Source: an uncultured delta proteobacterium
Lineage (GTDB): Bacteria; Myxococcota_A; Polyangia; Palsa-1104
Length of the DNA stretch: 64,000 nucleotides
NCBI GenBank assembly: GCA_963785725.1
Contig: CAWAWS010000029.1
Span: 32,001 to 96,000, forward strand
Direction: 5' to 3'
Positions 4,347 through 37,256 of the stretch are shown here, piece by piece; the stretch's first letter is position 1, and every line of letters begins with the position of its first letter. Under the pieces are notes generated by a model, which was not told the DNA's origin, made no database searches, and saw nothing but the letters and a program-made list of their open reading frames with translations. Made by a program: the position numbers and the translations under genes.

Positions 4347-4634
4347 TTACCGCCGATACCGCCGCATCGCCGTCATCCGCTGCGTCATCTCCCGCCGCGC
4401 CACCGTCAACGCCGCCTGCCAGCGCGCGTCCCGATCATCCAGCGTCGCCCGCAGCGCCAGCGCCTCGTCGCCCACGCCTTCGATGGCCAGCGCCCCCGCC
4501 AGCTGCTGCAGCAGCGACACCCGGCCGCGCGTGATCGACTCCGCCTCGGTGACCACTTCCGACGGATCGCGCCCGCTCGTCGGCGGCGGCGTCGCGCTCA
4601 CGATCTCGCGCAGCAGCTCGACGACCGTGCTCAA
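4347..4634 (-). CDS. Small helical protein, possible FliT-like chaperone
   Basis: Last gene of the fliD-fliS operon, start overlaps the upstream stop, amphipathic helices; call is positional. Confidence 0.45.
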   Translation of the reverse strand: MSTVVELLREIVSATPPPTSGRDPSEVVTEAESITRGRVSLLQQLAGALAIEGVGDEALALRATLDDRDARWQAALTVARREMTQRMTAMRRYRR

Positions 4635-4909
4635 AACGCACCCTGATAGGCCGCGGCCAAGGAATCGACGATGACGCGCGCCTCTTGCAGCTTCGCGTGC
4701 GAGCGTCCGACCGCCGCCTGCTGCAGCCGCGTCGACGCCAGCGCCATCAAGTCGCGCAGCGACGCGCAGCTCTGTGGCGACGCCACCAGCGCCAACATCG
4801 CCGCGCGCGCGTCGAGCAGCCGGCGAGCGCGATCGATGCCGGCCTCGGCACCATCGCCTTCCGCCAGGCGCCGCTGCGCCCGATCGATCCAGGTCAGAAT
4901 CTCGGTCAT
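4631..4909 (-). CDS. Degenerate FliS-like protein
   Basis: C-terminal half SLRDLMALASTRLQQAAVGRSHAKLQEARVIVDSLAAAYQGA aligns without gaps to FliS ELGSLYIFINKRLSHANIYNNAKGLDEAVKIIVKLRDSFQEA. Confidence 0.55.
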   Translation of the reverse strand: MTEILTWIDRAQRRLAEGDGAEAGIDRARRLLDARAAMLALVASPQSCASLRDLMALASTRLQQAAVGRSHAKLQEARVIVDSLAAAYQGAF

Positions 4910-4917
4910 GATGCTTC

Positions 4918-5292
4918 TTATTCGGCCTTCAACGCTGCTTCTTGAAAGCTATCGCGCAATTTCACGATAATTTTCACGGCCTCGTCCAACCCTTTGGCGT
5001 TGTTGTAAATGTTGGCGTGCGAGAGCCGCTTGTTGATGAAGATGTAGAGCGACCCGAGCTCGGCGCACAGCTTGGGCGCCAGCTTGCGGTCGAGCGCCAG
5101 ATGCATGGCGCCCACGATCTCCATCCCGTGGCTGATGGCCTCGCCGCGCTTGCGCGCGTCCTTCTCGGCGATGCCTTCGCGCGCCGTCTCGATGTCGAGC
5201 AGGAGCCGGCGATACATCTCGTCGATCAACCGCGCCGGCGACGCCGACTGGAGGTACGTCTTCTGATAAGAGCGAGCGGCCCTGGCGTACAT
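4918..5292 (-). CDS. fliS: Flagellin export chaperone FliS
   Basis: SYQK...SASPARLIDEMY, LGSLY...RLSHAN; directly downstream of fliD. Confidence 0.92.
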   Translation of the reverse strand: MYARAARSYQKTYLQSASPARLIDEMYRRLLLDIETAREGIAEKDARKRGEAISHGMEIVGAMHLALDRKLAPKLCAELGSLYIFINKRLSHANIYNNAKGLDEAVKIIVKLRDSFQEAALKAE

Positions 5293-5309
5293 GGTTTCCT
5301 CTTAGCCTC

Positions 5310-6698
5310 TTAGCTGGAGCTTGAGCTACTCGAGCTGCTGGAGGAGCTCGAGCTGGCCGTGTTGAACATCATGTTGAGATACTGCTGCTGCGACGTGAGC
5401 TCGCTCATCACCTGGTCGAGCTGCGTAAACTCCGCGCGCAGCTGCGTCTCGACGGTGTCGGCTTTGGCGTCGACCGCCGCGATCTGCGTCGTGTAGCTGT
5501 CGTATTGCGACTGCTTCGACGCCTGCTCGGTGATGAGCGCGCCCGTGCCGTACTGCGTGTACTGCGAGACCATCGAGTTGATCTGGCTGGCCAACCCGTT
5601 GTTGTTGGTGCCGACGAGCAGCTGCTGCGCCGCCGCCGGATTGCTGGTCAGCGTCTGCGACAGCTTGGTCGTATCGAGCGTGATCGTGCCGTCGGTGTTG
5701 AGCGACAAGCCGAGGTCGCCGGCCGAGAGGCTGCCGCCCGTCGCCGTCGTGATCGAGGTCGAGAACAGCCCGCCCATCTGCTGCTCGAGCCCTTGAATCG
5801 TCGAGTCGCCGAAGAGCGTATCCTCGCCCATCGTCGTGCCGTTGTAGCTGAGCTGGCTCGTGACCTGGCTGGCCACCGAGTTGTAGGCGCTCACCAGCGC
5901 TTGCAGCTTGCTCGTCAGCGCCGTCGAGTCGGTGCCGACGCTGAGGCTGGTCGCCGCGCCGCCGGTCGGCGTCGTCGCTTGCAAGTTGAAGGTGACGCCG
6001 GGAATGGCGTCGCTGATCGTGTTGCTCGAGCGCGTCATGGTGACGCCGTTGACGGTGAAGCTGGCGTCGGTGGCCGGCTGCGGCGTCGTCATGCCGAACG
6101 TGTTGCTGGAGTCGCCGAACGTGATGGCGTTGGCGGTGCCGCTGGCGGCGCCGGTGACGAGCAGGCGATAGCTCGACCCGTCGTAGATGACCGACGCGTT
6201 GATCTCGCCGTTGGCCTGCTGATTGATCGACGCCGCGATGCTCGCCAACGTGTCGTTCGTGCCGTAATCGACGCTGTAAGGCGGCGTCTTGCCGCCCACC
6301 GACAGCGTCAGCGTGCCCGAGCCGGCGACGCCGGGATTGTCGTTGGCGAAGCCGGTCGACACGCTGTTCTGCACCGACGCCAGCGAGTTGACGCTGATGT
6401 TGTAGCTGCCCGCCGTCGCCGTCGCCGCCGCGCTGGCCGTGAAGATCGCGTTGTTGCCGCTCGTGGCCGAGATCGACTGCACGTCATCGGTGGTCGAGAG
6501 CGCCGTCGCCGCCGTGCCCAGCGACTGCAACCCGGACGCGATCGAGGCCAGCGTCGAAATCTGGCTCTTCAGATCGGTCTGGTGCGTCTGCATCGCCGCT
6601 TCCGGCGCCTTCTCGGCGGTGACCATGTTCGTGATCAACGTCTCGGCGTCGAAGTTCGCGCCGATACCGGCGAAGGTGGCGATGGGAGTCGTGCTCAC
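5310..6698 (-). CDS. fliD: Flagellar filament cap FliD
   Basis: FAGIGANFD N-terminus, ATDASFTVNG...RSSNTISDAIPGVT, LFGDS, C-terminal EFTQLD. Confidence 0.93.
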   Translation of the reverse strand: MSTTPIATFAGIGANFDAETLITNMVTAEKAPEAAMQTHQTDLKSQISTLASIASGLQSLGTAATALSTTDDVQSISATSGNNAIFTASAAATATAGSYNISVNSLASVQNSVSTGFANDNPGVAGSGTLTLSVGGKTPPYSVDYGTNDTLASIAASINQQANGEINASVIYDGSSYRLLVTGAASGTANAITFGDSSNTFGMTTPQPATDASFTVNGVTMTRSSNTISDAIPGVTFNLQATTPTGGAATSLSVGTDSTALTSKLQALVSAYNSVASQVTSQLSYNGTTMGEDTLFGDSTIQGLEQQMGGLFSTSITTATGGSLSAGDLGLSLNTDGTITLDTTKLSQTLTSNPAAAQQLLVGTNNNGLASQINSMVSQYTQYGTGALITEQASKQSQYDSYTTQIAAVDAKADTVETQLRAEFTQLDQVMSELTSQQQYLNMMFNTASSSSSSSSSSSSSS

Positions 6699-6845: not shown

Positions 6846-7670
6846 TTAGCCCTGGAGAAGCTTGAGCGCGGCCGAGGGCAGCTGGTTCGCTTGCGCGAGC
6901 ACGGCCGTACCGGCCTGCACCAGGATGCTGTTACGCGACATGTCGGCCGACTCCGACGCGACGTCGACGTCCTTGATGTTCGACTCGGCGGACTGCAGGT
7001 TCTCCGCGAAGTCCGACGCGTTGTCCGCGGCAGCCGTCAAGCGGTTCTGGCCGGCGCCGACCGTCGCCTGCGCGGTCGAGAGCGTCTGAATCGCCGTGTC
7101 GATCGCGGTCAAGGCCGACTGCGCGCCCGACTGCGTGGTCAGGCTCAGCGACGCGACGCCCAAGGTCGTCGTGTCCGTCGCCGCGATGGTGGTCGAGATC
7201 TGGTCGGTCGTCGCCGCCGTCGTGCCGACCTGGAAGGTCACCGAGCTCGCCGCCGACAGCATCGAGATGCCGTTGTAGCTCGTCGACGACGCGATACGCT
7301 GGATTTCCGAGATGTCCTGCTGGAACTCCGTGTCCGTGTCCGAGAGCTGCGCGGTGCCCAAGGTACCGTTCGAGGCTTCCGTCGCCAGCTCCTTCATACG
7401 CGTCAGGAGCTGCGCCTGCTGGTTCATCGCGCCCGAGGCGACCTGCATCATCGAGACGCCGTCCGTCGCGTTGCGGTTCGCCTGGTTGTACGAGGCGATG
7501 TTCGACTCCATCTGCTCCGAGATGGCTTCGCCGGCGGCGTCGTCGGCGGCGCTGTTGATGCGCATACCGGACGAGAGGTGCGACATGTTGTCGGCCAACG
7601 AACGCTGGTTGATACCGAGGCTGCGCTGCGCATCGAGAGACGAGATGTTGTTAGAGATGTCGATAGACAT
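6846..7670 (-). CDS. fliC: Flagellin, 274 aa, D0/D1 core only
   Basis: LSSGMRINSAADDAAG, NATDGVSM, VGAGQNRL, IKDVDVASE, LAQANQLP; AGGAG RBS. Confidence 0.97.
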   Translation of the reverse strand: MSIDISNNISSLDAQRSLGINQRSLADNMSHLSSGMRINSAADDAAGEAISEQMESNIASYNQANRNATDGVSMMQVASGAMNQQAQLLTRMKELATEASNGTLGTAQLSDTDTEFQQDISEIQRIASSTSYNGISMLSAASSVTFQVGTTAATTDQISTTIAATDTTTLGVASLSLTTQSGAQSALTAIDTAIQTLSTAQATVGAGQNRLTAAADNASDFAENLQSAESNIKDVDVASESADMSRNSILVQAGTAVLAQANQLPSAALKLLQG

Positions 7671-7767: not shown

Positions 7768-8643
7768 TTACGAAATATTTTTGTCGGCCATCTGCGAGAT
7801 CAGCTGCGCCACGTCGGTGGCCGCGGTGTAACCGGTCTGCGCCTGCGCCAACGCCGAGGCCGCGGTCACGGTGTCGGCGCCGACGGCGTTGGTCTGCATC
7901 GTCGTCAGCTGCGTCTCGAAGGCGGAGCGCGCGTCGTTGGCCGCGTTCAGCGCCGACTCCTGCGCGCCGACATCCGACTGCGCCGACGACACTTGCTGCT
8001 GCGCCGTCGTCAAATCGGTGATCGACTGGCTGATGCCGGCCAAGTTGTTGCTCGCCAGCGCCGCCGACAGGCTCGTCAACGTCCCGAGCACGTTGACGCC
8101 GTTCGACGCCGTCAACACCGCGCCCGAGACGCCGATCGCCTGCGAATGGCCTTCGGAGACCTCGATCGTCTGCTGCACGCTGTCGCCCGAGTAGACGTCG
8201 CTCGACGAGAACGGCGTCCCCGTCTGGCTGCCGCCGAAGATCGGTTTGCCGTCGGAGCCGAGCGTGTTCGCCGACGCCAACACCGCGTCGTGCAGCGTCT
8301 GCACCTGCTGCGCCGCGGCCGCGCGCTGCGTGGCGTTGAGCGTGCCGTTGGCCATCTGGTTCGCCAGCGACAGCGCCGTCGTCAGCGTCGTGTTGATGTC
8401 GTTGAGCGCCGAGTCGGCCGTTTGCAGCTTGTCGAGCCCGAGCGTGATCGCCGTGCCGCGCTGCGTGCTCTCTTCTTGGCGAATGCCGGCGCGCTGCGCC
8501 TCTTCCCAGGCGACGAGATCGTCCGACGGCTGCGTCACGCGCAGGCCGCTCGTCACTTCGGCGGACGCGGTCGCGACCTTCGACTGCGCATTGCTCGTCG
8601 CGGTCTCGGCCTGCTGCATCATATAGGTCTGCGTGACGCGCAT
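7768..8643 (-). CDS. flgL: Hook-filament junction protein FlgL
   Basis: MRVT, SGLRVTQPSDD, IFGG; downstream of flgK. Confidence 0.9.
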   Translation of the reverse strand: MRVTQTYMMQQAETATSNAQSKVATASAEVTSGLRVTQPSDDLVAWEEAQRAGIRQEESTQRGTAITLGLDKLQTADSALNDINTTLTTALSLANQMANGTLNATQRAAAAQQVQTLHDAVLASANTLGSDGKPIFGGSQTGTPFSSSDVYSGDSVQQTIEVSEGHSQAIGVSGAVLTASNGVNVLGTLTSLSAALASNNLAGISQSITDLTTAQQQVSSAQSDVGAQESALNAANDARSAFETQLTTMQTNAVGADTVTAASALAQAQTGYTAATDVAQLISQMADKNIS

Positions 8644-8650
8644 CAGAGCC

Positions 8651-10015
8651 TCACAAGTTGGTCATCAGCGTCTCGAGCAGGTCATTGACCGTCGAGACGT
8701 ATTGGCTGGCGGCTTCGGCGGCGTGCTGAAATTGCGCCAAGGTCGCCGTCTCTTCGTTGATGTCGACGCCCGACTCGGAGTCGCGCGCCGAGGCCAACAC
8801 CTGCGTACGCGTCGACTCCAGCGTCACGTCGTTGGACGCGCTCGCCGCCGCCGCGCCGACGGTGGCCGTGACGTTGAGCGCCTGGTCGGTGAACGTCGCC
8901 GTGCCGCCGTTGGCGAGCGGCTGATCGCGCAAGGCCAAGAGCGCGCTGGCGCCGCCCGAGTCATTGGCGCCGGCGCCGACCGTGCGCGTCGCCAGCTTGT
9001 CGGGATTGGCGACGATGGTCGGGTTGACCGTGATCGCGGCCGCGCTGCCGGCGACCGTCGTCGGAATGTTGAACAGGTTGTTGCCCGTCGAGCCGTCGAG
9101 GCCGACATTGGCCGAGTGCACGGCGTTGAGCTGCGTCGCGAAGTCGTTGGCCAGCTGATCGAGCTGCGTCGCCGCCGTCGCCGCCGTGCCGTCGCGAAAC
9201 TGCACGAGGCCGGCGATCGAGCCGCCGTCCAAGCTGTTGGTGACGTCGGCTTTGTGCGGCCCGTCGACGATCTGCACGGCCACGTGGTTGCCGTTCGTCG
9301 GATCGGGCACCGCCTGCACCGACGAGGCGTGGGTGCCGTCGACGACGACGGTGCCGTTGCCGAGCACGAAGTTCATCTGCCCGTTGGTGCCGATGATGCC
9401 CTGACCGCCGATGATGCCGGCCAGCTGCTTCGCGGCCAGATCGCGCTGATCGGCGAGCGTCGGATCATTACTGGTGGCGATCGACTGATTGAGCGACGCG
9501 ATCTGCGCCGCCAGCTGCGTCGCCTGCGTCGACATCGTGCCAATCTGCGTGTCGGCGTCGGTCTGCGACTGCGAGATCGCCGTCGCCGCCGAGTTGAACT
9601 GCGTCGCCACCGACTGCGCGTCGCTGATGACCTGCGCGCGCATGGCCGTATCGCCCGGCGCCGCCTGCAGCGCGTTGACGTCGCCGAAGAACGTGCCCAT
9701 CGAGCCGGCCACGTCGTCGTTGGTGAGGCTGGTCTGCAAGCTGTCGAGCGACGCCGACAGCGACGAGGCCTGCCCGCTCGCGCCCGACTGCGCGCGCTCG
9801 CGCGTCGACAAGAGGTCGTCGGACGCGCGCGTGGCCGCGCCGGCGATGACGCCGCCGACCAGCGGCGCCGCCGGCTCCGACGAGAGCAGCACGCTCTCCT
9901 TCTGATAGCCGACGGTGTTGACGTTGGCCGTGTTGTTGCCGCTGACCGCGACACCGGCCTGCTGCGCCAAGAGCGCCGACGCGCCGAGGTTCAGGCTCGA
10001 GAGCAGACCGCCCAT
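8651..10015 (-). CDS. flgK: Hook-associated protein FlgK
   Basis: GNNTANVNTVGY, LADQRD, SGVDINEE. Confidence 0.93.
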   Translation of the reverse strand: MGGLLSSLNLGASALLAQQAGVAVSGNNTANVNTVGYQKESVLLSSEPAAPLVGGVIAGAATRASDDLLSTRERAQSGASGQASSLSASLDSLQTSLTNDDVAGSMGTFFGDVNALQAAPGDTAMRAQVISDAQSVATQFNSAATAISQSQTDADTQIGTMSTQATQLAAQIASLNQSIATSNDPTLADQRDLAAKQLAGIIGGQGIIGTNGQMNFVLGNGTVVVDGTHASSVQAVPDPTNGNHVAVQIVDGPHKADVTNSLDGGSIAGLVQFRDGTAATAATQLDQLANDFATQLNAVHSANVGLDGSTGNNLFNIPTTVAGSAAAITVNPTIVANPDKLATRTVGAGANDSGGASALLALRDQPLANGGTATFTDQALNVTATVGAAAASASNDVTLESTRTQVLASARDSESGVDINEETATLAQFQHAAEAASQYVSTVNDLLETLMTNL

Positions 10016-10018
10016 CGT

Positions 10019-10387
10019 TTACAGCCTCCCGCCCATGAGCGACGACTGCGGCGAATACATGCGCGCGCGCCGATCGTAGGTGCCCGGGCTCGGGCGCTGA
10101 TAACCGAGGCGCGCCGACAAGATCCGCGTCGCATCCGCCAAGAGCGCCGCGTTGGCGCGCGACTGATGCAGCACCTTCGTCATGAGCGCCTTCACCGTCG
10201 CCGCCCGCTTCTTGTCGCCGCCCGAGTCGAGCTGACCCAATTGCGCCAGCTCGCTCGCGTATCTTTCCTTATCGACGCGCGCCTGACCCATCGCCACCGA
10301 ATCGAGCTTGGCGACCGCTTGCCGTTCGGCGTCGAGCGCCGCCAGCATCGCGTTCAAGATGTTTTCAGCGCGCGTCAGCTGATTCAC
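10019..10387 (-). CDS. flgN: FlgN-like export chaperone
   Basis: Between flgM and flgK; helical; NAALL...TYDRR C-terminus. Confidence 0.65.
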   Translation of the reverse strand: MNQLTRAENILNAMLAALDAERQAVAKLDSVAMGQARVDKERYASELAQLGQLDSGGDKKRAATVKALMTKVLHQSRANAALLADATRILSARLGYQRPSPGTYDRRARMYSPQSSLMGGRL

Positions 10388-10656
10388 GACATACCCGCGC
10401 GATCGAGCTCTTCGTCAGCCATGCGACTGGAGAGCTGCTTGGTGTCGACTTTGTAGCTGCCGTTGCCGACCGACTGCTTCAGCGACGCGAGCTTGGCCGC
10501 GCGCGCCGTCTGGCTCGACGCCTGCGTGCTCGAGAGCTGCTGCGCGCGCAATGACACGCTGACCGTCTCGGCGTTGCTGCTGTCGACCGCCGCTGCGCGT
10601 GTCGTCGGCACCGTGGATTCGACCGCGGTGACCGCGCTCGGTCCTTGAATGCGCAT
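10384..10656 (-). CDS. flgM: Anti-sigma28 factor FlgM
   Basis: MRI..., VSVS, RAAKLASLKQSVGNGSYKVD. Confidence 0.88.
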   Translation of the reverse strand: MRIQGPSAVTAVESTVPTTRAAAVDSSNAETVSVSLRAQQLSSTQASSQTARAAKLASLKQSVGNGSYKVDTKQLSSRMADEELDRAGMS

Positions 10657-10678
10657 GATTCTGACCCTCCGTAGGGTT

Positions 10679-10711
10679 AGTTCGACCGGGTTTTATGAAT
10701 CTTGAGGGGCA
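10679..10711 (-). promoter_or_regulatory. Putative sigma28 promoter of flgM-flgN-flgK-flgL
   Basis: Minus strand TGCCCC-TCAA-N15-GTCGAACT, same layout as upstream of fliC. Confidence 0.7.
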
Positions 10712-10718
10712 GCTGAAT

Positions 10719-11522
10719 CTATTTCTCGAGAATGGAGGCGGGATCGATGGCGTGTCCGTCTTGGCGCACTTCGAAGTGCAAGTGCGGTCCTGTCGTACGA
10801 CCGGTGGCGCCGACCTCGCCGACCTCTTGGCCGGCGTCGACTTTGTCGCCCGGCTTGACGTCGATGCGCGACAAGTGGCCATAGCGCGTCTGCAAGCCGT
10901 TGCCGTGGTCGACGACGACGAGGTTGCCGTAATTTCCGGCCGTGCCGGCGCGCGTCACGACGCCGCCTTTGGCCGCCAGCGCCGGCGTGCCGGTGGCGGC
11001 GCGCAAGTCGACACCGGCGTGGACGCGCTTGTCGCCCTCGAGCGGATCGACGCGCCCGCCGAACTTCGACGTCACGACCGTGGCCTGGCTCAGCGGTGAC
11101 GCGAGCGTCGGCGCCGACGTCGGCGAAGCCGCCACGTCAGCACCATCTATGGAAGTGGAAGCTTGCGCGCCCGGCCACGCGCGCAGCTGCTGGATCGCGT
11201 GCGCCGCGTCGGTCGTCGTCGCGCTCGCCGTCGGCGCCGAAGACTTACTGTCACTGCGATTGGCGCGCGCCATCTCTTTGGTCAGCATCGCCGTCAAGCC
11301 GATGCCGCCGGCTTTGGCCATGTTGTCGGCGAGCGCGCCGTTGAGCATTTCGTGAAAGGTGGAGCCGGCGAAGCCGCCGTCGAGCATGCCGCCGTCCGTC
11401 GAATTCTGGACCTCGGACATGAGCTGCTTCAAAAAGTGCGACTCCAGGCCACGCGCCGCCGTCGTCGTCTCGTCATCATCGGGACGGGCGTACGGCGTCG
11501 TATGGGAAGGCACTTTCGTCAT
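10719..11522 (-). CDS. flgJ: FlgJ rod-binding domain fused to an M23 metallopeptidase
   Basis: N-terminal AARGLESHFLKQLM...GGFAGSTFHEML...AKAGGIGL; C-terminal HAGVD (HxxxD), YGHL, TGPHLHFEVR; downstream of flgI. Confidence 0.82.
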   Translation of the reverse strand: MTKVPSHTTPYARPDDDETTTAARGLESHFLKQLMSEVQNSTDGGMLDGGFAGSTFHEMLNGALADNMAKAGGIGLTAMLTKEMARANRSDSKSSAPTASATTTDAAHAIQQLRAWPGAQASTSIDGADVAASPTSAPTLASPLSQATVVTSKFGGRVDPLEGDKRVHAGVDLRAATGTPALAAKGGVVTRAGTAGNYGNLVVVDHGNGLQTRYGHLSRIDVKPGDKVDAGQEVGEVGATGRTTGPHLHFEVRQDGHAIDPASILEK

Positions 11523-11525
11523 ATT

Positions 11526-12644
11526 TTACAGAACCTGAATCTCCGCCCGCAGTGCACCCGCGGCCTTCAATGCTTGGAATATCGACACCAAGTCGCGCGG
11601 CTTTACCCCCAAAGAGTTCAAAGCGGCGGCAACATCACCGACGGTCGTGGCCGCTCGCAGCGGCGCCAAGCGACCTTCGCCTTCATCGACCTTCACGTCC
11701 GACTGCGCCACGACCTCGGTCTTGCCACCCTTCGAGAACGCGCCCGGCTGCGATACCACGGGCTGCTCCTCGATCTTGACGGTGATGCCGCCGCAGGCGA
11801 CGGCCGACGCCGAGAGCGTGACGTTGGCGCCGACCGCGATGGTGCCGGTGCGCTCGTCGATGATGACGCGGCCGGGCGAATCCGGCGTCGCTTCGATCGA
11901 TTCCAAGAGCGCGATGAGCTCGACGGCGCGGCCTTTCCAGCGCGGCCCGCCGGTGACGATGACGGCGCCCGGGTCGCGCACGCGCGCCAAAGGCTCGCCG
12001 AGCGTGCCGTTGATGGCGCTGGCGATGCGCCACGCCGTCGTAAAGTCGGGCTCGCGCAAGAGCAGCGCGATCTGCCCGTCGGGCAAGCCGTTGGGCGCGT
12101 CGTGCTCGAGCGTGGCGCCGTTGGGGACGTGGCCGGCGGTGACGTGATTCTTGCGCGTCGACGAGCCGGACGCGCCGCCCGCCGACCAAGCGCCGAGCGT
12201 CAACGAGCCTTGCGCCAGCGCCCACACGTTGTTGTCGGGTCCTTTGAGCGGCGTGACGATGAGCGTGCCGCCGACGAGGCTCTTGGCGTTGCCCATCGAC
12301 GAGACGGTGACGTCGAGCGTCGTGCCGGCGCGCGCAAACGGCGGCAGCTCGGCCGTGACCATCACCATCGCCACGTTCTTCTGCATGAGGTCGGTCAAGT
12401 CGACGGTCGTGCCCAAGTGGCGCATGAGCGACTGCAAGGGATGCTTGGTCGCCGTCATGCTGGTGTCGTCGCCGGTGCCGGCCAAGCCGACCACGAGGCC
12501 GAGCCCGACCAGGTGATTGCCGCGAAACCCGTCGACCTCGACGAGCTCCTTCAAGCGCGCCGCGTTCGCCGGCGACGACGACGCCAAGAGCGACACGAGA
12601 ATCGACAGCAGCGAAGCGATAGCTCGAGAGCGACGCATATTCAT
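11526..12644 (-). CDS. flgI: Flagellar P-ring protein FlgI
   Basis: RLKEL...GLVVGLAGTGD, VMVTAELPPF, SLVGGTL, IDERTGT, LKAAGALRAE. Confidence 0.96.
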   Translation of the reverse strand: MNMRRSRAIASLLSILVSLLASSSPANAARLKELVEVDGFRGNHLVGLGLVVGLAGTGDDTSMTATKHPLQSLMRHLGTTVDLTDLMQKNVAMVMVTAELPPFARAGTTLDVTVSSMGNAKSLVGGTLIVTPLKGPDNNVWALAQGSLTLGAWSAGGASGSSTRKNHVTAGHVPNGATLEHDAPNGLPDGQIALLLREPDFTTAWRIASAINGTLGEPLARVRDPGAVIVTGGPRWKGRAVELIALLESIEATPDSPGRVIIDERTGTIAVGANVTLSASAVACGGITVKIEEQPVVSQPGAFSKGGKTEVVAQSDVKVDEGEGRLAPLRAATTVGDVAAALNSLGVKPRDLVSIFQALKAAGALRAEIQVL

Positions 12645-12647
12645 CCT

Positions 12648-29359: not shown

Positions 29360-29778
29360 CGCGACCTCGTCGACGAAAGATCGTCCGCCAGCGACTGCTC
29401 GGCCGCGTGCCGCTTGGCGGCGATCTCGGCGCGCGTCTGATCGATCTGCTCGTCGCAGCTGCGCACGGCGCGTTCGCGCTCCTGCAGCACCTTCTGCGCT
29501 TTGCGCGTGCGATCTTGTGCGGCCGCTTGCATCTTGATGGCGTCTAACTGCAGAACCCGTGCCCGCTCGATCTCCTCGACAAACCCCAGCCAATCCGCGG
29601 CGCGCTTCGCCTGAATGGGCGGATGGTCGAGCCGAGCGTCAATTTCGCGGACGATCTGCTGCGTCTTCTGCTGCGCGTCGTGCAGCGCGCGGCCGGCTTC
29701 ACCCGCTTGCGCGGCGGCCACATCGCGAATACGCGTGCGCGCCGCCTTCAGCCGCTTCAACGTCTGCAGCTTACTCAC
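29356..29778 (-). CDS. fliJ: Export protein FliJ
   Basis: 140-aa coiled coil after fliI; C-terminal EQSLADD. Confidence 0.72.
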   Translation of the reverse strand: MSKLQTLKRLKAARTRIRDVAAAQAGEAGRALHDAQQKTQQIVREIDARLDHPPIQAKRAADWLGFVEEIERARVLQLDAIKMQAAAQDRTRKAQKVLQERERAVRSCDEQIDQTRAEIAAKRHAAEQSLADDLSSTRSR

Positions 29779-31082
29779 GCGGCATTTCCGATGGCCTTGC
29801 CGAGCGCCTGCATCGTCGAGCTGTAGTCGCTGCGTTCGTGGCTGGGTTGGCGCGCCCAGCCGTCAAATCTGTCACCGAACGCCAACGCCTCGTCGTAGGG
29901 CGCGTGCGTGCCCGGCGTGTAGGCGCCGAGGCTGCGCAGCTCCTCCACTTCCCGACGCGTGGCGATCAACCGCCGCGCTTTGCCGATGACCTGCTGCGCA
30001 TCGGGCGTCGTCACCTTCTGCAGCACGCGCGACGTCGACGACAAGAGATCGACCGCCGGAAAGTGCCCGCGCTCGGCCAGCGAACGCGAGAGCACGATGT
30101 GGCCGTCGAGCAGCGAGCGCGCCGAGTCGGCGACCGGATCGGACAGCTCGTCACCTTCGACGAGCACGGTGTAGATGCCGGTGATCGAGCCGCCGCCGTT
30201 GAGCGGCGCCACGCGCTCGAGCAGCTTGGGCATGATCGCGAACACGCTCGGCGGATAGCCCTTCGTCGCCGGCAGCTCGCCCGCGGCCAGGCCGATCTCA
30301 CGCAGCGCCATGCAGTAACGCGTCAGCGAGTCGATCACCAACAGCACGTGCTTGCCGCGGTCGCGAAAGTATTCGGCGATGGCGGTGGCGACTTGGGCGC
30401 CGCGCGCGCGCTCGAGCGGCGAGCGATCCGACGTCGCCGCGACGACGATGCTCTTCGACATGCCGTTCGAGACCAAGAGGTCGTGGACTTCGCAGCCGCG
30501 CTCGCCGATCAAGCCGACCACGGTGATGTCGGCGTTCGACTGATCCAAGATCTGCCGCATGAGCACGGTCTTGCCGACGCCGGCGCCGGCGAAGATGCCG
30601 ACGCGCTGGCCGCGACCGAGCGTCAACAGGGCGTCGATGGCGCGCACGCCCGTGTCCAGGCGCTGGTCGACGCTGCGGCGCGCGCCCAGCGGCGGGCCTT
30701 CGGCGTCGACGGGCACGCGATCTTTGACGTTCGGCGCCGGCTTGCCGTCGAGCGGCCGGCCGAAGGGATCGATGATGCGGCCGAGCAGCGCCTCGCCGGC
30801 GACCGTCTCGGCCAGCGTGCCTTTGCGGCGCACGCGCGCGCCCACTTCCAAGCCGCGCAAGTCGGAGAACGGCTGCACCAGCGCGCGATCGCCGCGAAAG
30901 CCGGTGACGGCGCCCGCGACTTTGCTGCGGTTGCAGTTGATCTCGACGAGATCGCCGACGCGCGCGCCGTCGAGAAAGGCTTCGATCTGCGTGGCCGAGG
31001 CTTCGGCGATGCGTCCGTAGGCGACCGGCTTGACGGCGTCGCGCAACAGCGGCGTGAGCACGCGCGAGTCGGCGTCGTTCAT
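29775..31082 (-). CDS. fliI: Flagellar export ATPase FliI
   Basis: AGAGVGKT Walker A, LIGERG, DSLTR, KGYPPS, LDGHIVL. Confidence 0.96.
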   Translation of the reverse strand: MNDADSRVLTPLLRDAVKPVAYGRIAEASATQIEAFLDGARVGDLVEINCNRSKVAGAVTGFRGDRALVQPFSDLRGLEVGARVRRKGTLAETVAGEALLGRIIDPFGRPLDGKPAPNVKDRVPVDAEGPPLGARRSVDQRLDTGVRAIDALLTLGRGQRVGIFAGAGVGKTVLMRQILDQSNADITVVGLIGERGCEVHDLLVSNGMSKSIVVAATSDRSPLERARGAQVATAIAEYFRDRGKHVLLVIDSLTRYCMALREIGLAAGELPATKGYPPSVFAIMPKLLERVAPLNGGGSITGIYTVLVEGDELSDPVADSARSLLDGHIVLSRSLAERGHFPAVDLLSSTSRVLQKVTTPDAQQVIGKARRLIATRREVEELRSLGAYTPGTHAPYDEALAFGDRFDGWARQPSHERSDYSSTMQALGKAIGNAA

Positions 31083-31768
31083 GCGACCTTCCGCTGACCG
31101 GCGCCGGCGCCCGACGTGCCGAGCGCGTCGGCGAGCGCGCCGCGCACCGCCTCCAGCCGCTCGTCGAGCGAGCTGTCGACGACGCGGCGCGAATTCTCGA
31201 CGACGCAGCCGGCCGGGCCGACCGACTCGTCGGGCACGAAGCGCACGGCGTCGGCCAATTCCGGCTTGAGCTCGACGACGACGTCAATCTCGGCCGCCGT
31301 CATGCGCACTTGCGGCAGCTCTTCGCCACCGAGCGCCGCGATGCCGGCTTCCACATGCTCCAAAATCAGCGACGGATCGGTCTGCGCTTCACGGCCGATC
31401 ACCTCGCGCGCGATCAACAGCACCAAGTCGAGCACGCGCTCGGGCGACGCCGGCCGCGCCACCGACTGCGCCGCCAGCTTGGCGATGCCCTCGGCGTACC
31501 GCGTCTGCATCGACTTGAGCTTCGCGGCCTCCGCTTCCAGCTGCCGCATCATGGCGTCGTGCTGCGCCTGCGGATCGATCTGCTGCTGCTGCGCGTTGTC
31601 GTTGGCCGCGTGGCCATGCGGCATGTGCGTGGGCGCGAACGGGTCGCGCACGGCCGGTGTCGCGCTCGCTTCCAGCCACGCCGGCGCCTGCGCGCGTTCG
31701 GCTACAGCCAAGCGCGGAATCAGCGCGGTCGCCTGACGATCGGTGACGATGCGGCCTTTGCGGATCAT
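31079..31768 (-). CDS. fliH: Export protein FliH
   Basis: Between fliG and fliI; IAREVIGRE, GCVVEN...VDSSLDERL. Confidence 0.82.
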   Translation of the reverse strand: MIRKGRIVTDRQATALIPRLAVAERAQAPAWLEASATPAVRDPFAPTHMPHGHAANDNAQQQQIDPQAQHDAMMRQLEAEAAKLKSMQTRYAEGIAKLAAQSVARPASPERVLDLVLLIAREVIGREAQTDPSLILEHVEAGIAALGGEELPQVRMTAAEIDVVVELKPELADAVRFVPDESVGPAGCVVENSRRVVDSSLDERLEAVRGALADALGTSGAGAGQRKVA

Positions 31769-32782
31769 TTAGACCAACTTCTCCCCGCCGCCCGACGACG
31801 GCAGCGCGAGCTTGCCCTGCTGCGACATCTTCATCGCCGTATCGACCACGTCGCGCTGCGCCTTCTCGACGTCCGAGAGCTTGGTCGGCGGCATCATCGA
31901 CAGGTCCTCGCGCATCGACTCGGCCGCGCGCGCCGACACCGCCGAGAGGAACTTGTTGCGCAGCTCCTCCGACGCCGTCTTGAGCGCGAGCAGCATCGTC
32001 TCCGACGGCACTTCGCGCATGAGCGGCTGCAGCTGGCGCGCTTCGATGCGGCCCAAATCCTCGAAGGTGAACATGGCCTCGCGAATCCGCGGCGCCAGCT
32101 TGGCGTTGGCCTCGCCGAGCGCGCCGAGCAGACGTTCGGAGTCGGTCGGGCCGAGCTCGTTGAGCAGCTCGGCGGCGAAGGCGATGCCGTCGAAGTCGCG
32201 GCTGTCGCTCTCTTCCGACAGCGCGCCGGCCGCGGACAGCGCCTTGGCCAGCGCTTCCGACGCCAGCTCGACCATGTGCGGCGGCACCGTCTCCAACGAC
32301 GCGATACGACCCAACAGATCGGCCTGCTGCTCTTTGGTCATGACGAGCAGAATCTCGGCCGCCTGCGCGCGCGGCAGCTGCGACAAGATCACGGCCGCGA
32401 CCTGCGGATGCTCTTCACCGAGCAGCTCGGCGACGGTCGCGGTGCGCGCGTTCTTGATGAGCTCGAGCGGCGCCGACGGCGGCTGCGTGGGCGAGAACAG
32501 CTCCTGCGCGCGATCGGTGCCGATGCTCATCGCCGTCAATTGGCGCACGTAATCGCCCGCCGCCGCCGGCAACATTGGCGCTGACATCGCGCGCTCGAAG
32601 TCCTCGAACACCGGCTCCAGCGCTTCGGCCTTGATGCCGCGCAGCGAATCGGCGGCCTCGGCAAGCAGCCGAACATCCTTCTCTTCCAGCTTGGACAGGA
32701 TCGCGCGGGCCACGTCTTCATCGAGTCCGAGCAGCACCAGCGCAGCGCGTTGACGAGCGTCGAGGGTCATCGACGCGTTCAC
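31769..32782 (-). CDS. fliG: Motor switch protein FliG
   Basis: EHPQ, MFTFEDL, SARAAESMREDL. Confidence 0.96.
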   Translation of the reverse strand: MNASMTLDARQRAALVLLGLDEDVARAILSKLEEKDVRLLAEAADSLRGIKAEALEPVFEDFERAMSAPMLPAAAGDYVRQLTAMSIGTDRAQELFSPTQPPSAPLELIKNARTATVAELLGEEHPQVAAVILSQLPRAQAAEILLVMTKEQQADLLGRIASLETVPPHMVELASEALAKALSAAGALSEESDSRDFDGIAFAAELLNELGPTDSERLLGALGEANAKLAPRIREAMFTFEDLGRIEARQLQPLMREVPSETMLLALKTASEELRNKFLSAVSARAAESMREDLSMMPPTKLSDVEKAQRDVVDTAMKMSQQGKLALPSSGGGEKLV

Positions 32783-34344
32783 GATGCAGAATCCTTGCCA
32801 GCCGGCTGACCCTCATTCATCCACGAAGAGAGGACGCGCGCGGCCCGCGTCGTGTCGCCGCGAGCGGCCTGCAGCGCGCGGTCGCGCGACGACGCAGAGG
32901 CCGGTAATTCCGCGGCCGGCGAGGGCGCGCGGGCCAACGTCGCTTCCAGCCGCTCGACCGGCGCCGGCAAGGCGCGAACGATCTCGGGCGCGATGGGCCG
33001 CTTGCGCCGCGCCAACATGAACGCCACTAAAATGACGAACACGCCCGCGCCCGCCGCCGCGTACGGCGCCCACTTCGGCAGCTTCAAGGCCGGCTTCTCG
33101 TCCGCGCCCGTGTCGACGACGATGGGCGCGAACGGCGCCTGCGCCACTTCAATCTTGTCCCCGCGCTCGTCGTCGAGGCCGGCCGCCGTGCGCGCCAACG
33201 TCCCGATACGCGTCAATTCTTCGGTGGTGCGCGGTTTGTGTCCGCCTTTGGCGTCGCTCGCTTCATCGACGAGCACGGCCACGTGGATGCGCTTGACCCG
33301 CGACTTCGGCTGCACGACGCGGCTGACCACATGGTTGACTTCGTAGTTGCGTGTCTCCTGCAGACGCAGACGGCCGGCGTCGCTCGACGGCGTCGTCGTG
33401 CCCGCGGGCGAGCCCGGCAGGTTGCCGTGCGCGCCCGACACGCCGCCGGCGTTGCCATCGGCCGCGCCCGTGCGCTCTTCGGTCTTCGACTCCGAGCGCA
33501 GCGCGATCTTGTCTTTGTCGTAGGTGTCTTCGGTGCGCTCGGCGCGCGACTCGTCAATCTCGGCCGTCACTTCCACCTGCGCGTGACCGACGCCGACGAC
33601 GCGCTCGACGATCTCGCGCACCCGCTTCGACAGCGTGCGCTCCAAATCGGCCGAGGCTTCGATGCCCGTGCCCGAGTCGTCGCCCGACCACAAAGGCGTA
33701 CCTTGCTCGTCGACGACCGTGACGCGCTCCGGCTTCAACCCGGGAATGCTCGCCGCCACCAAGTGCACGACGCCGCGCACCTGCGGCGACGACAGCTTGT
33801 GGCCCGGCTTGAGCGTCAACACCACCGACGCCGTGGGCGCGTCGTCGTCCTCTTTGTACAGCGAGCGCTCGGGCGCCGCGATGTGCACGCGCGCCCGCTC
33901 GACCGCATCCAACGACATGATCGTGCGCGCCAATTCACCCTGCAGCGCGCGCCGATAGTTCATCTGCTCGACGAAGCTGGTGGTGCCGAACGACTGCTTG
34001 TCGAAGAGCTCGAAGCCGACGCCGCCGCCGCGCGGCAAGCCGGCGCCCGCCATGCTCAAGCGCAGCTCGTGAACGCGCGCAGCCGGCACTTCAATCGTGT
34101 CGGCGCCGGTGATGCGATAAGGGGTGTTGTCGGCCTTGAGCTGCTCGACGACTTTGGCCGCGTCCTCGGTCTGCAAGCCGCTGAAGAGCACGGCCCAATT
34201 CTCGGTCGGGCCTTTGAGCCCCAAAAACGCCGTGCCCACGACGCTGCCGAGGACGACGAGGATGACGAGCATCCGGCTCGTCGTCGGCATTTTGGCCCAC
34301 ACGGCCTTGGCCTGGTCGATGATCTTCTTCAGCTCGCCGTTCAT
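32779..34344 (-). CDS. fliF: MS-ring protein FliF
   Basis: GFELFD, NYRRALQGELARTI, ARVHIA, ASVVL, ETRNYE. Confidence 0.96.
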   Translation of the reverse strand: MNGELKKIIDQAKAVWAKMPTTSRMLVILVVLGSVVGTAFLGLKGPTENWAVLFSGLQTEDAAKVVEQLKADNTPYRITGADTIEVPAARVHELRLSMAGAGLPRGGGVGFELFDKQSFGTTSFVEQMNYRRALQGELARTIMSLDAVERARVHIAAPERSLYKEDDDAPTASVVLTLKPGHKLSSPQVRGVVHLVAASIPGLKPERVTVVDEQGTPLWSGDDSGTGIEASADLERTLSKRVREIVERVVGVGHAQVEVTAEIDESRAERTEDTYDKDKIALRSESKTEERTGAADGNAGGVSGAHGNLPGSPAGTTTPSSDAGRLRLQETRNYEVNHVVSRVVQPKSRVKRIHVAVLVDEASDAKGGHKPRTTEELTRIGTLARTAAGLDDERGDKIEVAQAPFAPIVVDTGADEKPALKLPKWAPYAAAGAGVFVILVAFMLARRKRPIAPEIVRALPAPVERLEATLARAPSPAAELPASASSRDRALQAARGDTTRAARVLSSWMNEGQPAGKDSAS

Positions 34345-34359
34345 GATGTATGTCGTCCT

Positions 34360-34680
34360 TTAGAGCGGCGTGTTCATGAGGTCTTTGTAGGCCTCGAGCG
34401 CTTTGTTCTTCAACGTCACGGCGTAACGCAGCGCGATCGTCGACTTCTCGCTCGCGATCATGACTTCGTGGATGCCGACGCTGGGGTCGCCGTCGGCGAA
34501 CTTGGTGGCCATCTCGTCCGACTGCTTGTCGAGCGTGTTGGCGCTCTTGAAGGCGTCGCCGAGCGCGTCCGAGAAGCTGACGCCGTTCGACGACTTGTCG
34601 TCGTGATCGGCGGCCGGCGTCATCCGCTCGATGCCGGACGTATCGATCGGTGTGTCGCGGAGCTGGATGGGCAACGACAT
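34360..34680 (-). CDS. fliE: Hook-basal body protein FliE
   Basis: SFSDAL, IHEVMIASEK, NKALEAYKDLM. Confidence 0.93.
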   Translation of the reverse strand: MSLPIQLRDTPIDTSGIERMTPAADHDDKSSNGVSFSDALGDAFKSANTLDKQSDEMATKFADGDPSVGIHEVMIASEKSTIALRYAVTLKNKALEAYKDLMNTPL

Positions 34681-34682
34681 GG

Positions 34683-35120
34683 TTATTTCCCGATCCCGAT
34701 GGCTTTTTCGGCCAGCTGCGTCGCCGAGTCGAGCGCCGTGACGCCCGCTTGATAGGCGCGCGACGCCGTGATCATGTCGACCATCTCCTCGACGGGATTG
34801 ACGTTCGGATAGGCGACGTAACCATCGGCATTCGCGTCGGGATGGCCGGGGTCGTACTCCATGCGCGGCGGCGAGGCGTCGGCTTTGATGCCGGCCACTT
34901 GCACGCCGGTCACGGCGCCCGCGGCGTCGCCCGCTTGCGCGCCCGAGATGTTCTGCGACGCGGCCTGCGCGCGCAGCACGACGTCTTGGCGCGCGTAGGG
35001 CTTGCCGTCCGGCCCTTTGGTGGTCTGCGCGTTGGCGAGGTTCGACGAAGCGACGTTCAGACGCGTCCGCTCGGCGTTCAAGCCGGTCGCGCTGACTTCC
35101 ATGGCGGTAAAGAAATCCAT
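34683..35120 (-). CDS. flgC: Rod protein FlgC
   Basis: SNLANA, YDPGHPDANADGYVAYPNVNPVEEM. Confidence 0.96.
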   Translation of the reverse strand: MDFFTAMEVSATGLNAERTRLNVASSNLANAQTTKGPDGKPYARQDVVLRAQAASQNISGAQAGDAAGAVTGVQVAGIKADASPPRMEYDPGHPDANADGYVAYPNVNPVEEMVDMITASRAYQAGVTALDSATQLAEKAIGIGK

Positions 35121-35131
35121 GAGTCGTCTCC

Positions 35132-35524
35132 TTACGTGCCGTCGCCGGCGGCGTATTTGAGGTCGGACAACGTGCGCGACACGAGCTCGGAGTTGGCCGA
35201 GTAGCGGACGCGGTTGGCCGCGACCTTGGCCATTTCGCGCTCGAGGTTGACTTGGTTGCCGTCGGCGCTCGGGTTGGCGGTGTCGCCGTCCGAGAACTTC
35301 AGCTCGCCGGCCAGGCCGCCGTCCGTCGCCGGATCGATGTGGGCCGCGTTCGTCTTCGCCAGCGTCTCGGCGAACGACATCGGCTGCGCGCGCCGCTCGA
35401 GATCGGCCGGCTTGTAGCCCGGCGTGTCGAGGTTGGCGAGGTTGCCGGCCAACACCGCGTGGCGATCACGATGGAAGTCGAGAGCGGCTTCCATGTGCGT
35501 CAGCGAATCGAACATGGTCTTCAT
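35132..35524 (-). CDS. flgB: Rod protein FlgB
   Basis: GNLANLDTPGYK, DGNQVNLEREM; start chosen downstream of the sigma54 site. Confidence 0.94.
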   Translation of the reverse strand: MKTMFDSLTHMEAALDFHRDRHAVLAGNLANLDTPGYKPADLERRAQPMSFAETLAKTNAAHIDPATDGGLAGELKFSDGDTANPSADGNQVNLEREMAKVAANRVRYSANSELVSRTLSDLKYAAGDGT

Positions 35525-35538: not shown

Positions 35539-35555
35539 AGCAACTAACGAGCCAG
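35539..35555 (-). promoter_or_regulatory. sigma54 promoter of the flgB operon
   Basis: Minus strand CTGGCTCGTTAGTTGCT = TGGC-N7-TTGC. Confidence 0.8.
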
Positions 35556-35603
35556 CGCGAAGTCCGCGTCGTTTGCGGGTTTCGCGTCGCTGACACCGTC
35601 GCT

Positions 35604-35654
35604 GTCGGCGAGATTGACGGCGCCAAACGTCAAGGCGAGCCCGTCAGAATCGAA
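35604..35654. promoter_or_regulatory. Putative enhancer sites upstream of flgB
   Basis: GTCGGCGAGATTGACGGCGCCAA (35604-35626) and CCGTCAGAATCG (35641-35652), related to 25744-25767 and 38369-38382. Confidence 0.55.
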
Positions 35655-35804
35655 TGCGCAATCGCGAGGTCCGCGAAAGGCCGCGCCCGTTGGCGCGCTG
35701 CGAAGTCGAGGTCGGTTTGTCGGGTGAGCGTTAAGCAGGAAGCGGACCGCAGCGCGGTCGCGAACGAGACTGCCGAGCGAGGCGGAGCGGCGTGCGCGCT
35801 GTGT

Positions 35805-37256
35805 TTACGTCCCCAGCTTGCGCAGCTTCTCGACGAGCGTCGTGCGGTTGAGGCCGAGCAGCGCCGCGGCTTCCGTACGATTGCCTTCGGCGCGCGAGAT
35901 GGCCTGCTCGATGACCTGACGCTCGACCTCGTCGAGGCGCGCGCGCAGATTGAGCGAGTCGTTGCTCGTCGACGCGACCGCCGACAACAGCGCCGCCGAC
36001 TCCGACTGCGCCGGCGCGACCGACGTCAGCGGCGTCGCCATCGGGCGCGACGGCGAATCGTTGGACGCCGAGACGAGCAAGAGCTTGGCCGGCGCCGAGC
36101 GCTTGCGCGTCGAGCCGAGGCGCAGACAGGCCGCGGTGATCGGGCCGTCGGCCAGCGCCAGCGCGCGCTCGATCGCGTTCGCCAGCTCGCGCACGTTGCC
36201 GGGCCAGCTGTACGACAACAGCGCCTGCTCGGCGCTCGGGTGCACGACCGGCGTCGCGCCGCCGTGCGCACGACCGGCGCGCTCGAAGAACGTGCGCGCC
36301 AGCGGCAAGATGTCGCCCGGACGCTCACGCAGAGGCAAGAGCTCGACCGGCAGCACGCTCAAGCGGAAGTACAGGTCGGCGCGGAACTTCCCTTCGTCGA
36401 CGAGCCTCTCGAGGTCCTGGTTGGTCGCGGCCACGACGCGGATGTCGATCGGCGTCGACGTGTTGGAGCCGACCGGCGTCACGGCGCGCTCTTGCAGCAC
36501 GCGCAACAGCTTGGCCTGCGCCATCAGCGGCATGTCGCCGATTTCGTCGAGGAAGAGCGTGCCGCCATCGGCGGCGACGAGCTTGCCGTCGCGCGCCTTG
36601 TCGGCGCCGGTGAACGCGCCGCGGGCGAAGCCGAACAGCTCGGACTCGATGAGCGTCTCGGGGATGGCGGCGCAGTTGACGGCGATCATCGGGCGATCGC
36701 GGCGCGATGACGCCTGGTGCAGCGCGCGGGCGACGACTTCTTTGCCGGTGCCGCTCTCGCCGGTGATGAGGACGGTGGCGGGAGAATTGGCGACCTTGCG
36801 GATGAAGCGCAGGACTTCCATCGTGTGCGCGTCGTCGCCGACCATGTCGATGTCGGCGCGGCGGCGCCATTCGTCGGTGGCGTCGCCGATGGGACGATAA
36901 GCGCGGATGATGTCGCCGAGACGCACCGAGTCGAACGGCTTCTCGATGACCTCGGTGGCGCCGGCGCGCACGGCGGCGCTGATCGACTTGACGCGCGCTT
37001 CGGCGGTCACGCAGAACGCGGCGCGGGCGCGGCGCTCGGCCACGATCAGATGAATGAGCTCGGAGCCGTCGCCGTCGGGCAGGTTGAAGTCGACGAAGGC
37101 GACGTCGAACGTGCGGCGGGCGATGGCGGCGCGGCCGTCGGCGATCGAGGTCGCGGTGACGGCATCACAATTGTGACGCTGGAGCAGGCGTGACAGCGCG
37201 GCGGCCATCTCGAAGTCGTCGTCCACGATCAATGCAGTGCAACGCGGCTCGCTCAT
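35805..37256 (-). CDS. sigma54-dependent response regulator (REC-AAA+-HTH), FleQ/FlrC-like flagellar activator
   Basis: IVDDD, FVDFNLPDG, GESGTGKE, GAFTGA, LFLDEIG, WPGNVREL, GLNRTTLVEKL; adjacent to flgB. Confidence 0.88.
   Translation of the reverse strand: MSEPRCTALIVDDDFEMAAALSRLLQRHNCDAVTATSIADGRAAIARRTFDVAFVDFNLPDGDGSELIHLIVAERRARAAFCVTAEARVKSISAAVRAGATEVIEKPFDSVRLGDIIRAYRPIGDATDEWRRRADIDMVGDDAHTMEVLRFIRKVANSPATVLITGESGTGKEVVARALHQASSRRDRPMIAVNCAAIPETLIESELFGFARGAFTGADKARDGKLVAADGGTLFLDEIGDMPLMAQAKLLRVLQERAVTPVGSNTSTPIDIRVVAATNQDLERLVDEGKFRADLYFRLSVLPVELLPLRERPGDILPLARTFFERAGRAHGGATPVVHPSAEQALLSYSWPGNVRELANAIERALALADGPITAACLRLGSTRKRSAPAKLLLVSASNDSPSRPMATPLTSVAPAQSESAALLSAVASTSNDSLNLRARLDEVERQVIEQAISRAEGNRTEAAALLGLNRTTLVEKLRKLGT

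Follow-up and report, generated by a model that had tools for sequence, protein, structure and literature searches.

An apparently complete and probably working flagellar system of Polyangia type in an uncultured myxobacterium, and a barrel–lipoprotein pair that accompanies it

Myxobacteria are described in textbooks as non-flagellated, and a flagellar gene cluster in an uncultured member of the group raises the question of whether it encodes a working organelle, how it came to be there and how unusual it is. We analysed a stretch of 64,000 nucleotides (the window, G000:C29:32,001-96,000, from contig C29 of host genome G000) in which an original prediction had recognised such a cluster. The host genome is a metagenome-assembled genome (MAG) of 8.9 Mb in 47 contigs. 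Our reading, to which we give a probability of about 0.68, is that the cluster encodes a complete and probably working flagellum native to Polyangia, which was inherited at the level of family or order and lost repeatedly, including in four congeners.

The window contains 38 minus-strand open reading frames (ORFs) from 37,256 to 4,347, assigned with Pfam, NCBIfam and homologue comparison, and the predicted set of about 38 co-oriented flagellar genes was thus recovered. Read from 37,256, the order is the sigma54 activator, flgB, flgC, fliE, fliF, fliG, fliH, fliI, fliJ-like, fliK, flgD and flgE, followed by fliM, fliN, fliO, fliP, fliQ, fliR, flhB, flhA, flhF, flhG, fliA, flgF, flgG, flgA, flgH, flgI and flgJ, and finally flgM, flgN, flgK, flgL, fliC, fliD, fliS, a second fliS-like gene and a fliT-like gene.

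35805..37256, minus strand: receiver-AAA-HTH sigma54 activator (family scan)
29775..35524, minus strand: fliI, fliH, fliG, fliF, fliE, flgC, flgB (family scans)
27151..29778, minus strand: flgD, fliK, fliJ-like gene (family scan, relatives' loci)
25850..27137, minus strand: flgE, hook, with the frame broken by one extra base at 26,699 (family scan)
24451..25665, minus strand: fliN and divergent fliM, C ring (family scan, predicted fold)
18295..24454, minus strand: flhA, flhB, fliR, fliQ, fliP and long fliO, export gate (family scans)
15551..18284, minus strand: fliA, flhG, flhF (family scans)
11526..15600, minus strand: flgI, flgH, flgA, flgG, flgF, P ring, L ring and distal rod (family scan)
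7768..11522, minus strand: flgL, flgK, flgN, flgM, flgJ (rod-binding plus M23) (family scans)
6846..7670, minus strand: fliC, the lone minimal flagellin, 274 amino acids (family scan)
5310..6698, minus strand: fliD, filament cap (family scan)
4347..5292, minus strand: fliT-like gene, second fliS-like gene, fliS (family scan, relatives' loci, sigma28-type box)

Family scans found the rod, P and L rings, junction, filament and cap. The export gate and ATPase set (FlhA, FlhB, FliP, FliQ, FliR, FliH and FliI) is present, and so is the set for the MS ring and C ring (FliF, FliG, FliM and FliN), with FliM recognised by its fold. FlhA scores 801 bits against the flagellar profile TIGR01398 (cut-off 772) and 544 against the SctV profile (cut-off 692); the export gate is therefore flagellar. 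The assignments of fliJ and fliT are based on position and size, with additional matches of 34-40% in relatives for fliT, and fliK, flgN and the second fliS scored under the Pfam cut-offs. The FliM candidate (308 amino acids) precedes fliN. The sequence scan and a PDB sequence search each recovered its C-terminal FliM/N domain alone. The protein recurs in 13 related loci with 30-41% conservation, and comparison of its AlphaFold model by Foldseek gave matches to the C-ring FliM of Salmonella (E 2.7e-13) and to FliM middle domains; judged from this model, the protein is a highly divergent FliM. FliO is long (416 amino acids, 23204-24454) and combines an N-terminal periplasmic domain with long linkers, and neither an AMIN nor a LysM domain was detected in it; passages of one study report AMIN and LysM forms of FliO for Myxococcota (PMC12248157). 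FlhF (above the TIGR03499 cut-off) and the MinD-like FlhG are both encoded beside flhA, as had been claimed, and together they suggest a polar flagellum. From the gene set as a whole, we infer a swimming or dispersal stage.

The interval 4,347-37,256 contains no stator gene. The stator genes lie to the left of the window, and a non-flagellar insert stands between them and the cluster:

G000:C29:27.1-32.0 kb, plus strand: motA1-motB1 (MotAB type), motA2-motB2 (MotCD type) and fliL (family scans)
329..4257, plus strand: low-GC three-gene insert with a DUF1549-like lipoprotein, DUF1501 and a small Cys/His lipoprotein

The stop of fliL is 25 bases left of window position 1, and positions 1..328 form the link to the motor genes. 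MotA1 scores above TIGR03818 and MotA2 above PRK09109 (MotC type), MotB2 is nearest to MotD, and the MotB proteins have Asp-bearing motifs, so that two pairs were found with the features of a stator. Past its OmpA domain, MotB1 (L006:15912-17387) has a long C-terminal low-complexity repeat of K-G-A-x-D-type pentapeptides. A third, divergent MotA/MotB-like pair with a MotB plug (L008:8856-10462, on G000:C8) is located apart from flagellar genes, among large unannotated ORFs. The insert separates fliL from fliT, which adjoin in the related genome G019. Its GC is 0.60-0.63 and its GC content at third codon positions (GC3) 0.72-0.77; its codon bias is 0.36, against a 99th percentile of 0.27 for blocks of three ORFs. 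No mobility gene was seen in this cassette, and its composition indicates that it was probably acquired. The original prediction had described the cluster as free of integrases, insertion sequences and compositional breaks. This holds for integrase and transposase domains, none of which was found among the scanned ORFs, and fails for composition, which breaks at the left border.

The host is an uncultured member of the Polyangia (Myxococcota), as predicted. The closest labelled relatives of its GyrB are annotated as 'Polyangia bacterium' (78-82%) and, in one case, 'Myxococcales bacterium' (82%), and Haliangiales follow at 66%. In the tree of this single marker, on which the placement is based, the host is nested in its own genus, family and order (support 99, 99 and 100), and this order has a Haliangiales/Kofleriaceae clade as its sister group (support 92). 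The flanking genes had also been said to carry myxobacterial hallmarks. A PEGA-type kinase is encoded at 47,907-49,475, with the PEGA domain itself below the cut-off. The window did not yield the CglB-like vWA lipoprotein, and its scanned ORFs gave no vWA match; the CglB-type profile NF033757 gave weak matches only, on contigs C16 and C30. GltG-like genes in the host were below the cut-off.

The FlhA phylogeny indicates that the host flagellum is of a type native to Myxococcota. In a tree of 25 rows selected from 111 (another tree had 52 rows), host FlhA lies within a 100/100 Myxococcota clade of 13 rows with G011, G008, G019 and Kofleriaceae loci, and its nearest relative is that of G011, from the same family (73%). 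All sampled Myxococcota FlhA proteins are on one side of a 100/99 branch. Among the best 80 FlhA loci listed from named genomes, 18 match at 57-69% and the remaining 62 at 40-49%; most of the 18 bear the label Kofleriaceae, Myxococcales, Myxococcota or delta-proteobacteria. G008, G011, G019 and six named loci of Myxococcota type share the host's gene order between fliM and flgL, within the extent of each locus. The ratios of FlhA to GyrB distance are 1.07 for G011, 1.10 for G008 and 0.94 for G019, and this agreement fits inheritance with losses.

A flagellar gene set is not rare in this phylum, contrary to what the original prediction implied. FlgK_D1 exceeds its cut-off in 166 of the 401 genomes sampled from the phylum (all at least 85% complete), in 32 of 79 genomes of the class sample (summed from family tallies) and in 8 of 42 genomes of the order; partial clusters in G011 and G017 bring the order to 10 of 42 members with clusters. 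The same gene order occurs in Kofleriaceae MAGs. One cluster, L204 (G021:C71), looks eroded or error-ridden, with flgH not detected and flgI, flgG and fliA partial. Passages of a GTDB-wide survey call the phylum motile (10.64898/2026.06.16.732483), Zodletone MAGs of Myxococcota are reported to encode flagellar assembly (Murphy et al. 2021, 10.1101/2021.07.06.451402, in part), and flagellin transcripts are mentioned for a pooled set of Myxococcota and Bdellovibrionota predator MAGs (PMC11937823, in part). The main-text passages of these MAG papers do not describe the anatomy of the cluster, its distribution in Polyangia or the barrel–lipoprotein pair discussed below, and no paper devoted to Polyangia flagella was found among openly readable main texts. 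The flagellum itself is ordinary for the phylum, and what is new is the pair and the fine-scale patchiness. The textbook image of non-flagellated myxobacteria reflects which members were cultured, as about 40% of the sampled species carry FlgK. Patchiness within one genus and one family makes repeated loss of swimming testable.

Could the cluster belong to another organism, or be decaying? A mis-binned or chimeric contig is very improbable. The source is a MAG of 88% completeness, composition dips at the left border, no single long contig from other runs spans a border, and no single record spans the right one. However, contamination is just 1.5%, and the dip is the insert, with flagellar genes on either side. 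The stator locus contains, between motB1 and motA2 (L006:17411-17585), a dispersed intergenic repeat that is about 150 bp long and occurs in 31 copies over 19 host contigs. The left-flank genes have their best matches among the host's own paralogues and congeners, and the closest FlhA belongs to the same family. Coverage of the cluster border had been proposed as a check. Close-strain contigs from four soil runs (three studies) covered 30 of 30 bins of 22,001-42,000, inside and outside the cluster and across the right border, and related-strain depth was similar over 37-42 kb; chimerism is thus unlikely. At least one fifth of the filament-region words were present in five soil metagenome runs (three studies), and none of the listed runs with such words was an RNA run. 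A recently inactivated relic, in which the break in flgE is real and the strain is approaching the unflagellated state of its congeners, would explain why an essential gene is split, why loss is complete in those congeners and why a foreign insert lies inside the locus. Runs X2 and X3, moreover, have depth at 26,699 with no deletion listed there, a point that also weighs against a working flagellum. The assembly is nevertheless prone to indels: other split genes are rpoB, rpoC, a cheA, a cardiolipin synthase-like gene and enolase. The background is 6 frameshifts in the 43 kb of 63 sigma54 AAA loci and 5 over the 21 kb of 19 compared genes, rpoB and rpoC among them; the flagellar genes have fewer, 1 in 29 kb (35 genes). 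Related-strain contigs in runs X1 (depth 9.7 of 25.4) and X4 (2.8 of 2.8), both from one study, lack the extra base, and the promoter boxes are intact. Because of the indel-prone assembly and the X1 and X4 contigs, we read the flgE frameshift as most likely an assembly error; a real shift in this strain is the less likely alternative, and a relic is improbable. Within the window, the cardiolipin synthase-like gene (43825-45568) and enolase (57143-58415) are split across frames, which fits assembly indels. Strain differences in flagellar codons comprised 17 synonymous and 8 non-synonymous changes among the best-supported rows.

The history of the cluster is harder to settle, and several observations count against simple inheritance. 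None of the four congeners (99, 93, 92 and 53% complete) has flagellin or FlgK. Approximately unbiased (AU) tests rejected monophyly of FlhA for the order (p-AU 1.4e-5) and the family (8e-6), the branch linking the host to its own family is not starred in the FlhA tree, and G005 and G009 carry a different FlhA type; the rejection and this second type imply exchange or old paralogy within the phylum. Pooled over 22 flagellar genes, codon bias (0.11) slightly exceeds the 95th percentile (0.099). These data leave room for the functional cluster to have been re-acquired from another Polyangia lineage of the same family or order after its loss in the ancestor of the genus. The entire system lies within about 43 kb of one contig, and the FlhA/GyrB ratios are low for loci of Kofleriaceae type (0.65-0.78). 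DNA searches of the congeners with the flanks returned only paralogous gene families, so that neither a syntenic flank nor an empty site could be located there. We regard re-acquisition as unlikely, however. The distances to relatives in the family and order match those of GyrB, flagellar GC3 is host-like (0.82-0.94), the host's repeat lies in the stator locus, and the scanned ORFs lack integrase and transposase domains. Losses were modelled as about four times faster than gains in a preprint whose main-text passages make no mention of Myxococcota (10.1101/2024.12.05.626484). Thus, of the claim that the lineage retains a native flagellum, the native type stands, and retention is probable but unproven, given its absence in all four congeners and the movement of FlhA within the order. 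The same-family genomes G009 and G005 (L203, L201 and L202) have another flagellar type, with FlhA at 45-48% and no barrel found; there are two flagellar lineages in one family.

A pair of genes just beyond the cluster, upstream of the activator, accompanies this flagellar type.

37647..38276, minus strand: small exported outer-membrane beta-barrel, 209 amino acids (sigma54 box, predicted fold, profile)
37403..37657, minus strand: Cys-rich lipoprotein, 84 amino acids, partner of the barrel (lipobox, alignment of relatives)

Alignment and model gave the barrel protein a signal peptide, a transmembrane barrel fold and an aromatic C-terminal strand. The barrel is modelled with a predicted local distance difference test score (pLDDT) of about 76-94 and matches NspA (E 4.7e-5) and OmpA (7.6e-5) at modest template-modelling (TM) scores of 0.4-0.5; on the model, its fold is NspA/OmpX/OmpA-like, of the eight-stranded type. 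The lipoprotein has a lipobox Cys, the pattern C-x-R-x-S-D-C-x5-C-x4-5-C and then an acidic low-complexity tail, with four invariant cysteines beyond the lipid cysteine. The 29 barrel members scanned matched no Pfam family, and the lipoprotein of the window matched none in Pfam or NCBIfam. A full hidden Markov model search found a compact barrel family of 335 clusters at 50% identity, of which 10 were looked up and the named ones were all 'hypothetical'. ESM Atlas matches were unnamed and mostly in Myxococcota clusters, a word-index protein search gave 6 close relatives only, and a metagenome scan with the barrel alignment gave at least one short locus with the pair intact.

The distribution of the pair follows that of the flagellum. 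Strong barrel profile matches occurred in 46 other genomes of 401, and 44 of these 46 are FlgK-positive against a base rate of 165/400; outside the seed alignment the count is 22 of 23. Eight weak matches (E 6e-11 or worse) were excluded, two of them FlgK-positive and six not (five of those partial), and a match in G004 at E 6e-4 disappeared under the profile search. Within the class Polyangia, 26 of the 32 genomes with a flagellum have the barrel, against 1 of the 47 without; of the 42 genomes of the order, 7 have it, all flagellated. The triad of barrel, lipoprotein and activator recurs in G008, G011, G017 and G019. Among 28 other loci, the lipoprotein directly follows the barrel in 20, adjoins it on the opposite strand in 6 and is missing in 2; it is present in G016 and G035 as well. 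The position of the pair varies by family (after motAB, after fliS in fliS-fliD-fliC, ahead of flgG, next to fliL or ahead of the activator), and it lies 3-33 kb from flgK in the 12 genomes in which listed coordinates on one contig were compared. That the pair is kept through these rearrangements argues for function rather than hitch-hiking. On the other side, kinship makes the genomes non-independent, so that the co-occurrence of barrel and FlgK is overstated. Of the 32 flagellated genomes of the class, 6 lack the pair, as do most flagellated families beyond Polyangia (44 of 165 have it overall); it persists in G371 and G193, which have neither FlgK nor FliF, and 10 of 20 widened loci lack a clear flagellar neighbour. 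Taken together, these data suggest that the pair most probably serves this flagellar type as an accessory that has not been described before. We see in it a candidate new component or regulator of the flagellum, and also a compact marker of the type.

What might the pair do? Supposing an inherited and working flagellum, we favour a role in seating or sealing the rod and L ring at the outer membrane, at slightly under even odds, because the pair would be made early and is often in operons with rod, ring and stator genes. The chief rival role is an envelope sensor feeding the sigma54 cascade, which we hold to be considerably less probable. A swimmer-specific surface or polar protein is somewhat less probable again, and hitch-hiking is the least probable of the four. 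A predicted complex of barrel and lipoprotein scored 0.06 (mark 0.32), which weighs neither for nor against a contact between them. Vibrio has the H-ring outer-membrane accessories FlgO, FlgP and FlgT, and RcsF-OmpA and TraA-TraB are pairs of a barrel and a lipoprotein. The pair resembles the H ring in combining an outer-membrane protein with a lipoprotein among flagellar genes, and RcsF and TraAB in combining a small barrel with a Cys-rich lipoprotein. It differs from all of these in its NspA/OmpX-like fold, and family scans of the 29 barrel members (Pfam) and the lipoprotein (Pfam and NCBIfam) gave no homology to FlgO/FlgP/FlgT, RcsF-OmpA or TraA-TraB. Tentatively, Polyangia and a few related Myxococcota might have a distinct flagellar type with a dedicated barrel–lipoprotein module that the flagellum needs to cross the myxobacterial outer membrane or to work in it, a reading which we consider rather less likely than not to be correct as a whole. 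If it is correct, some 40% of the class would alternate between swimming and motility on surfaces.

Promoter-like boxes accompany the cluster, in line with the predicted intact promoters. Sigma54-type boxes are upstream of flgB, the activator and the barrel gene (3 matches against 0.24 expected), and sigma28-type boxes upstream of flgM, the second fliS and a kinase at 42,572 (3 against 0.22 expected); the patterns were composed after the sequence was read, so the enrichment is overstated. Sigma28-type boxes precede motA1 and motA2 too. A degenerate sigma28-like site was seen by eye for fliC at about 7,737-7,761.

35,539-35,554: sigma54 box of flgB
37,271-37,286: sigma54 box of the activator
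38,289-38,304: sigma54 box of the barrel gene
4,921-4,945: sigma28-type box of the second fliS
10,681-10,705: sigma28-type box of flgM

Polar flagellates such as Pseudomonas, Vibrio and Campylobacter provide the model for the cascade; its steps are taken from them, and the parts list, boxes and linkage are observed in the host. A PAS kinase would phosphorylate the sigma54 activator, which would drive its own operon and the flgB-fliF-hook operon, and the barrel–lipoprotein pair would be made early from its sigma54 promoter. FlhF and FlhG would set one or few polar basal bodies. Completion of the hook would then lead to export of FlgM and free FliA for fliC, fliS and both stator pairs, and proton stators of MotAB and MotCD type may share the load.

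Among the closest known schemes is the Pseudomonas-type polar system with dual stators, which the family matches of the host support. Common features are FlhF/FlhG, the sigma54/sigma28 hierarchy, the MotAB/MotCD stators and a PAS kinase adjoining a receiver-type sigma54 activator. Unlike that type, the host has a very divergent FliM, a long FliO, a minimal single flagellin and the barrel–lipoprotein pair, and no CheZ was found. Within the phylum, passages of Thomas et al. (2008, PMC2330069) describe a flagellar cluster of 55.7 kb in Anaeromyxobacter dehalogenans 2CP-C and swimming of strain K, and argue that this flagellum is ancestral and was lost in gliding myxobacteria. As in the host, it is a single large cluster with motA, motB, fliC and more than 30 other genes, a likeness set by the published description and not by sequences, with a member of a different class. 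There, che genes lie between motAB and the fli genes, whereas the host cluster has none; fliJ, flgN, fliT, flgA, flgJ and fliK are reported missing, whereas the host has clear flgA and flgJ genes and candidates for the remaining four. The non-flagellar type III secretion system (T3SS) of Myxo lacks FlgBCDEK, FliEG, FlgH and MotAB, according to passages of Abby and Rocha (2012, PMC3459982); the host cluster has export-gate homologues in common with it, but possesses all of these proteins. A repurposed T3SS was ruled out by the FlhA cut-offs, and the host's T3SS-type gene on C7, common to four of four congeners, branches elsewhere. Scattered second T3SS export genes (SctV-like, FliP-like and ATPase) occur at G000:C7:204.2-208.1 kb, C6:213 kb and C7:480 kb; with every FlhA/SctV match counted, 35 of the 41 other genomes of the order contain a match to the SctV-like gene.

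Chemotactic input is a further weak point of a working flagellum. A search for CheZ found none, the CheA of C29 has no close match in G008 or G011, and similar CheA proteins occur in the unflagellated G033, G034 and G040. A che cluster is located about 72 kb away (L092:11743-19900, G000:C29:141-149 kb), with a cheA with two CheW domains, mcp, cheY, cheB, cheR and an EAL-HDOD gene. Its assignment to the flagellum by co-occurrence failed, as it does not track flagella.

Regulatory genes follow on the opposite strand beyond the barrel gene.

38402..42286, plus strand: PAS-PAS histidine kinase, receiver-HDOD protein, receiver-HD protein (family scan)
42527..44095, plus strand: hybrid PAS kinase behind a sigma28-type box (family scan)

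Homologues of the kinase and HDOD genes adjoin the activator in G008. The three genes at 38402..42286 are likely to provide the activator's kinase and cyclic-dinucleotide control, a role suggested by their domains and position. The hybrid PAS kinase is a possible member of the late regulon.

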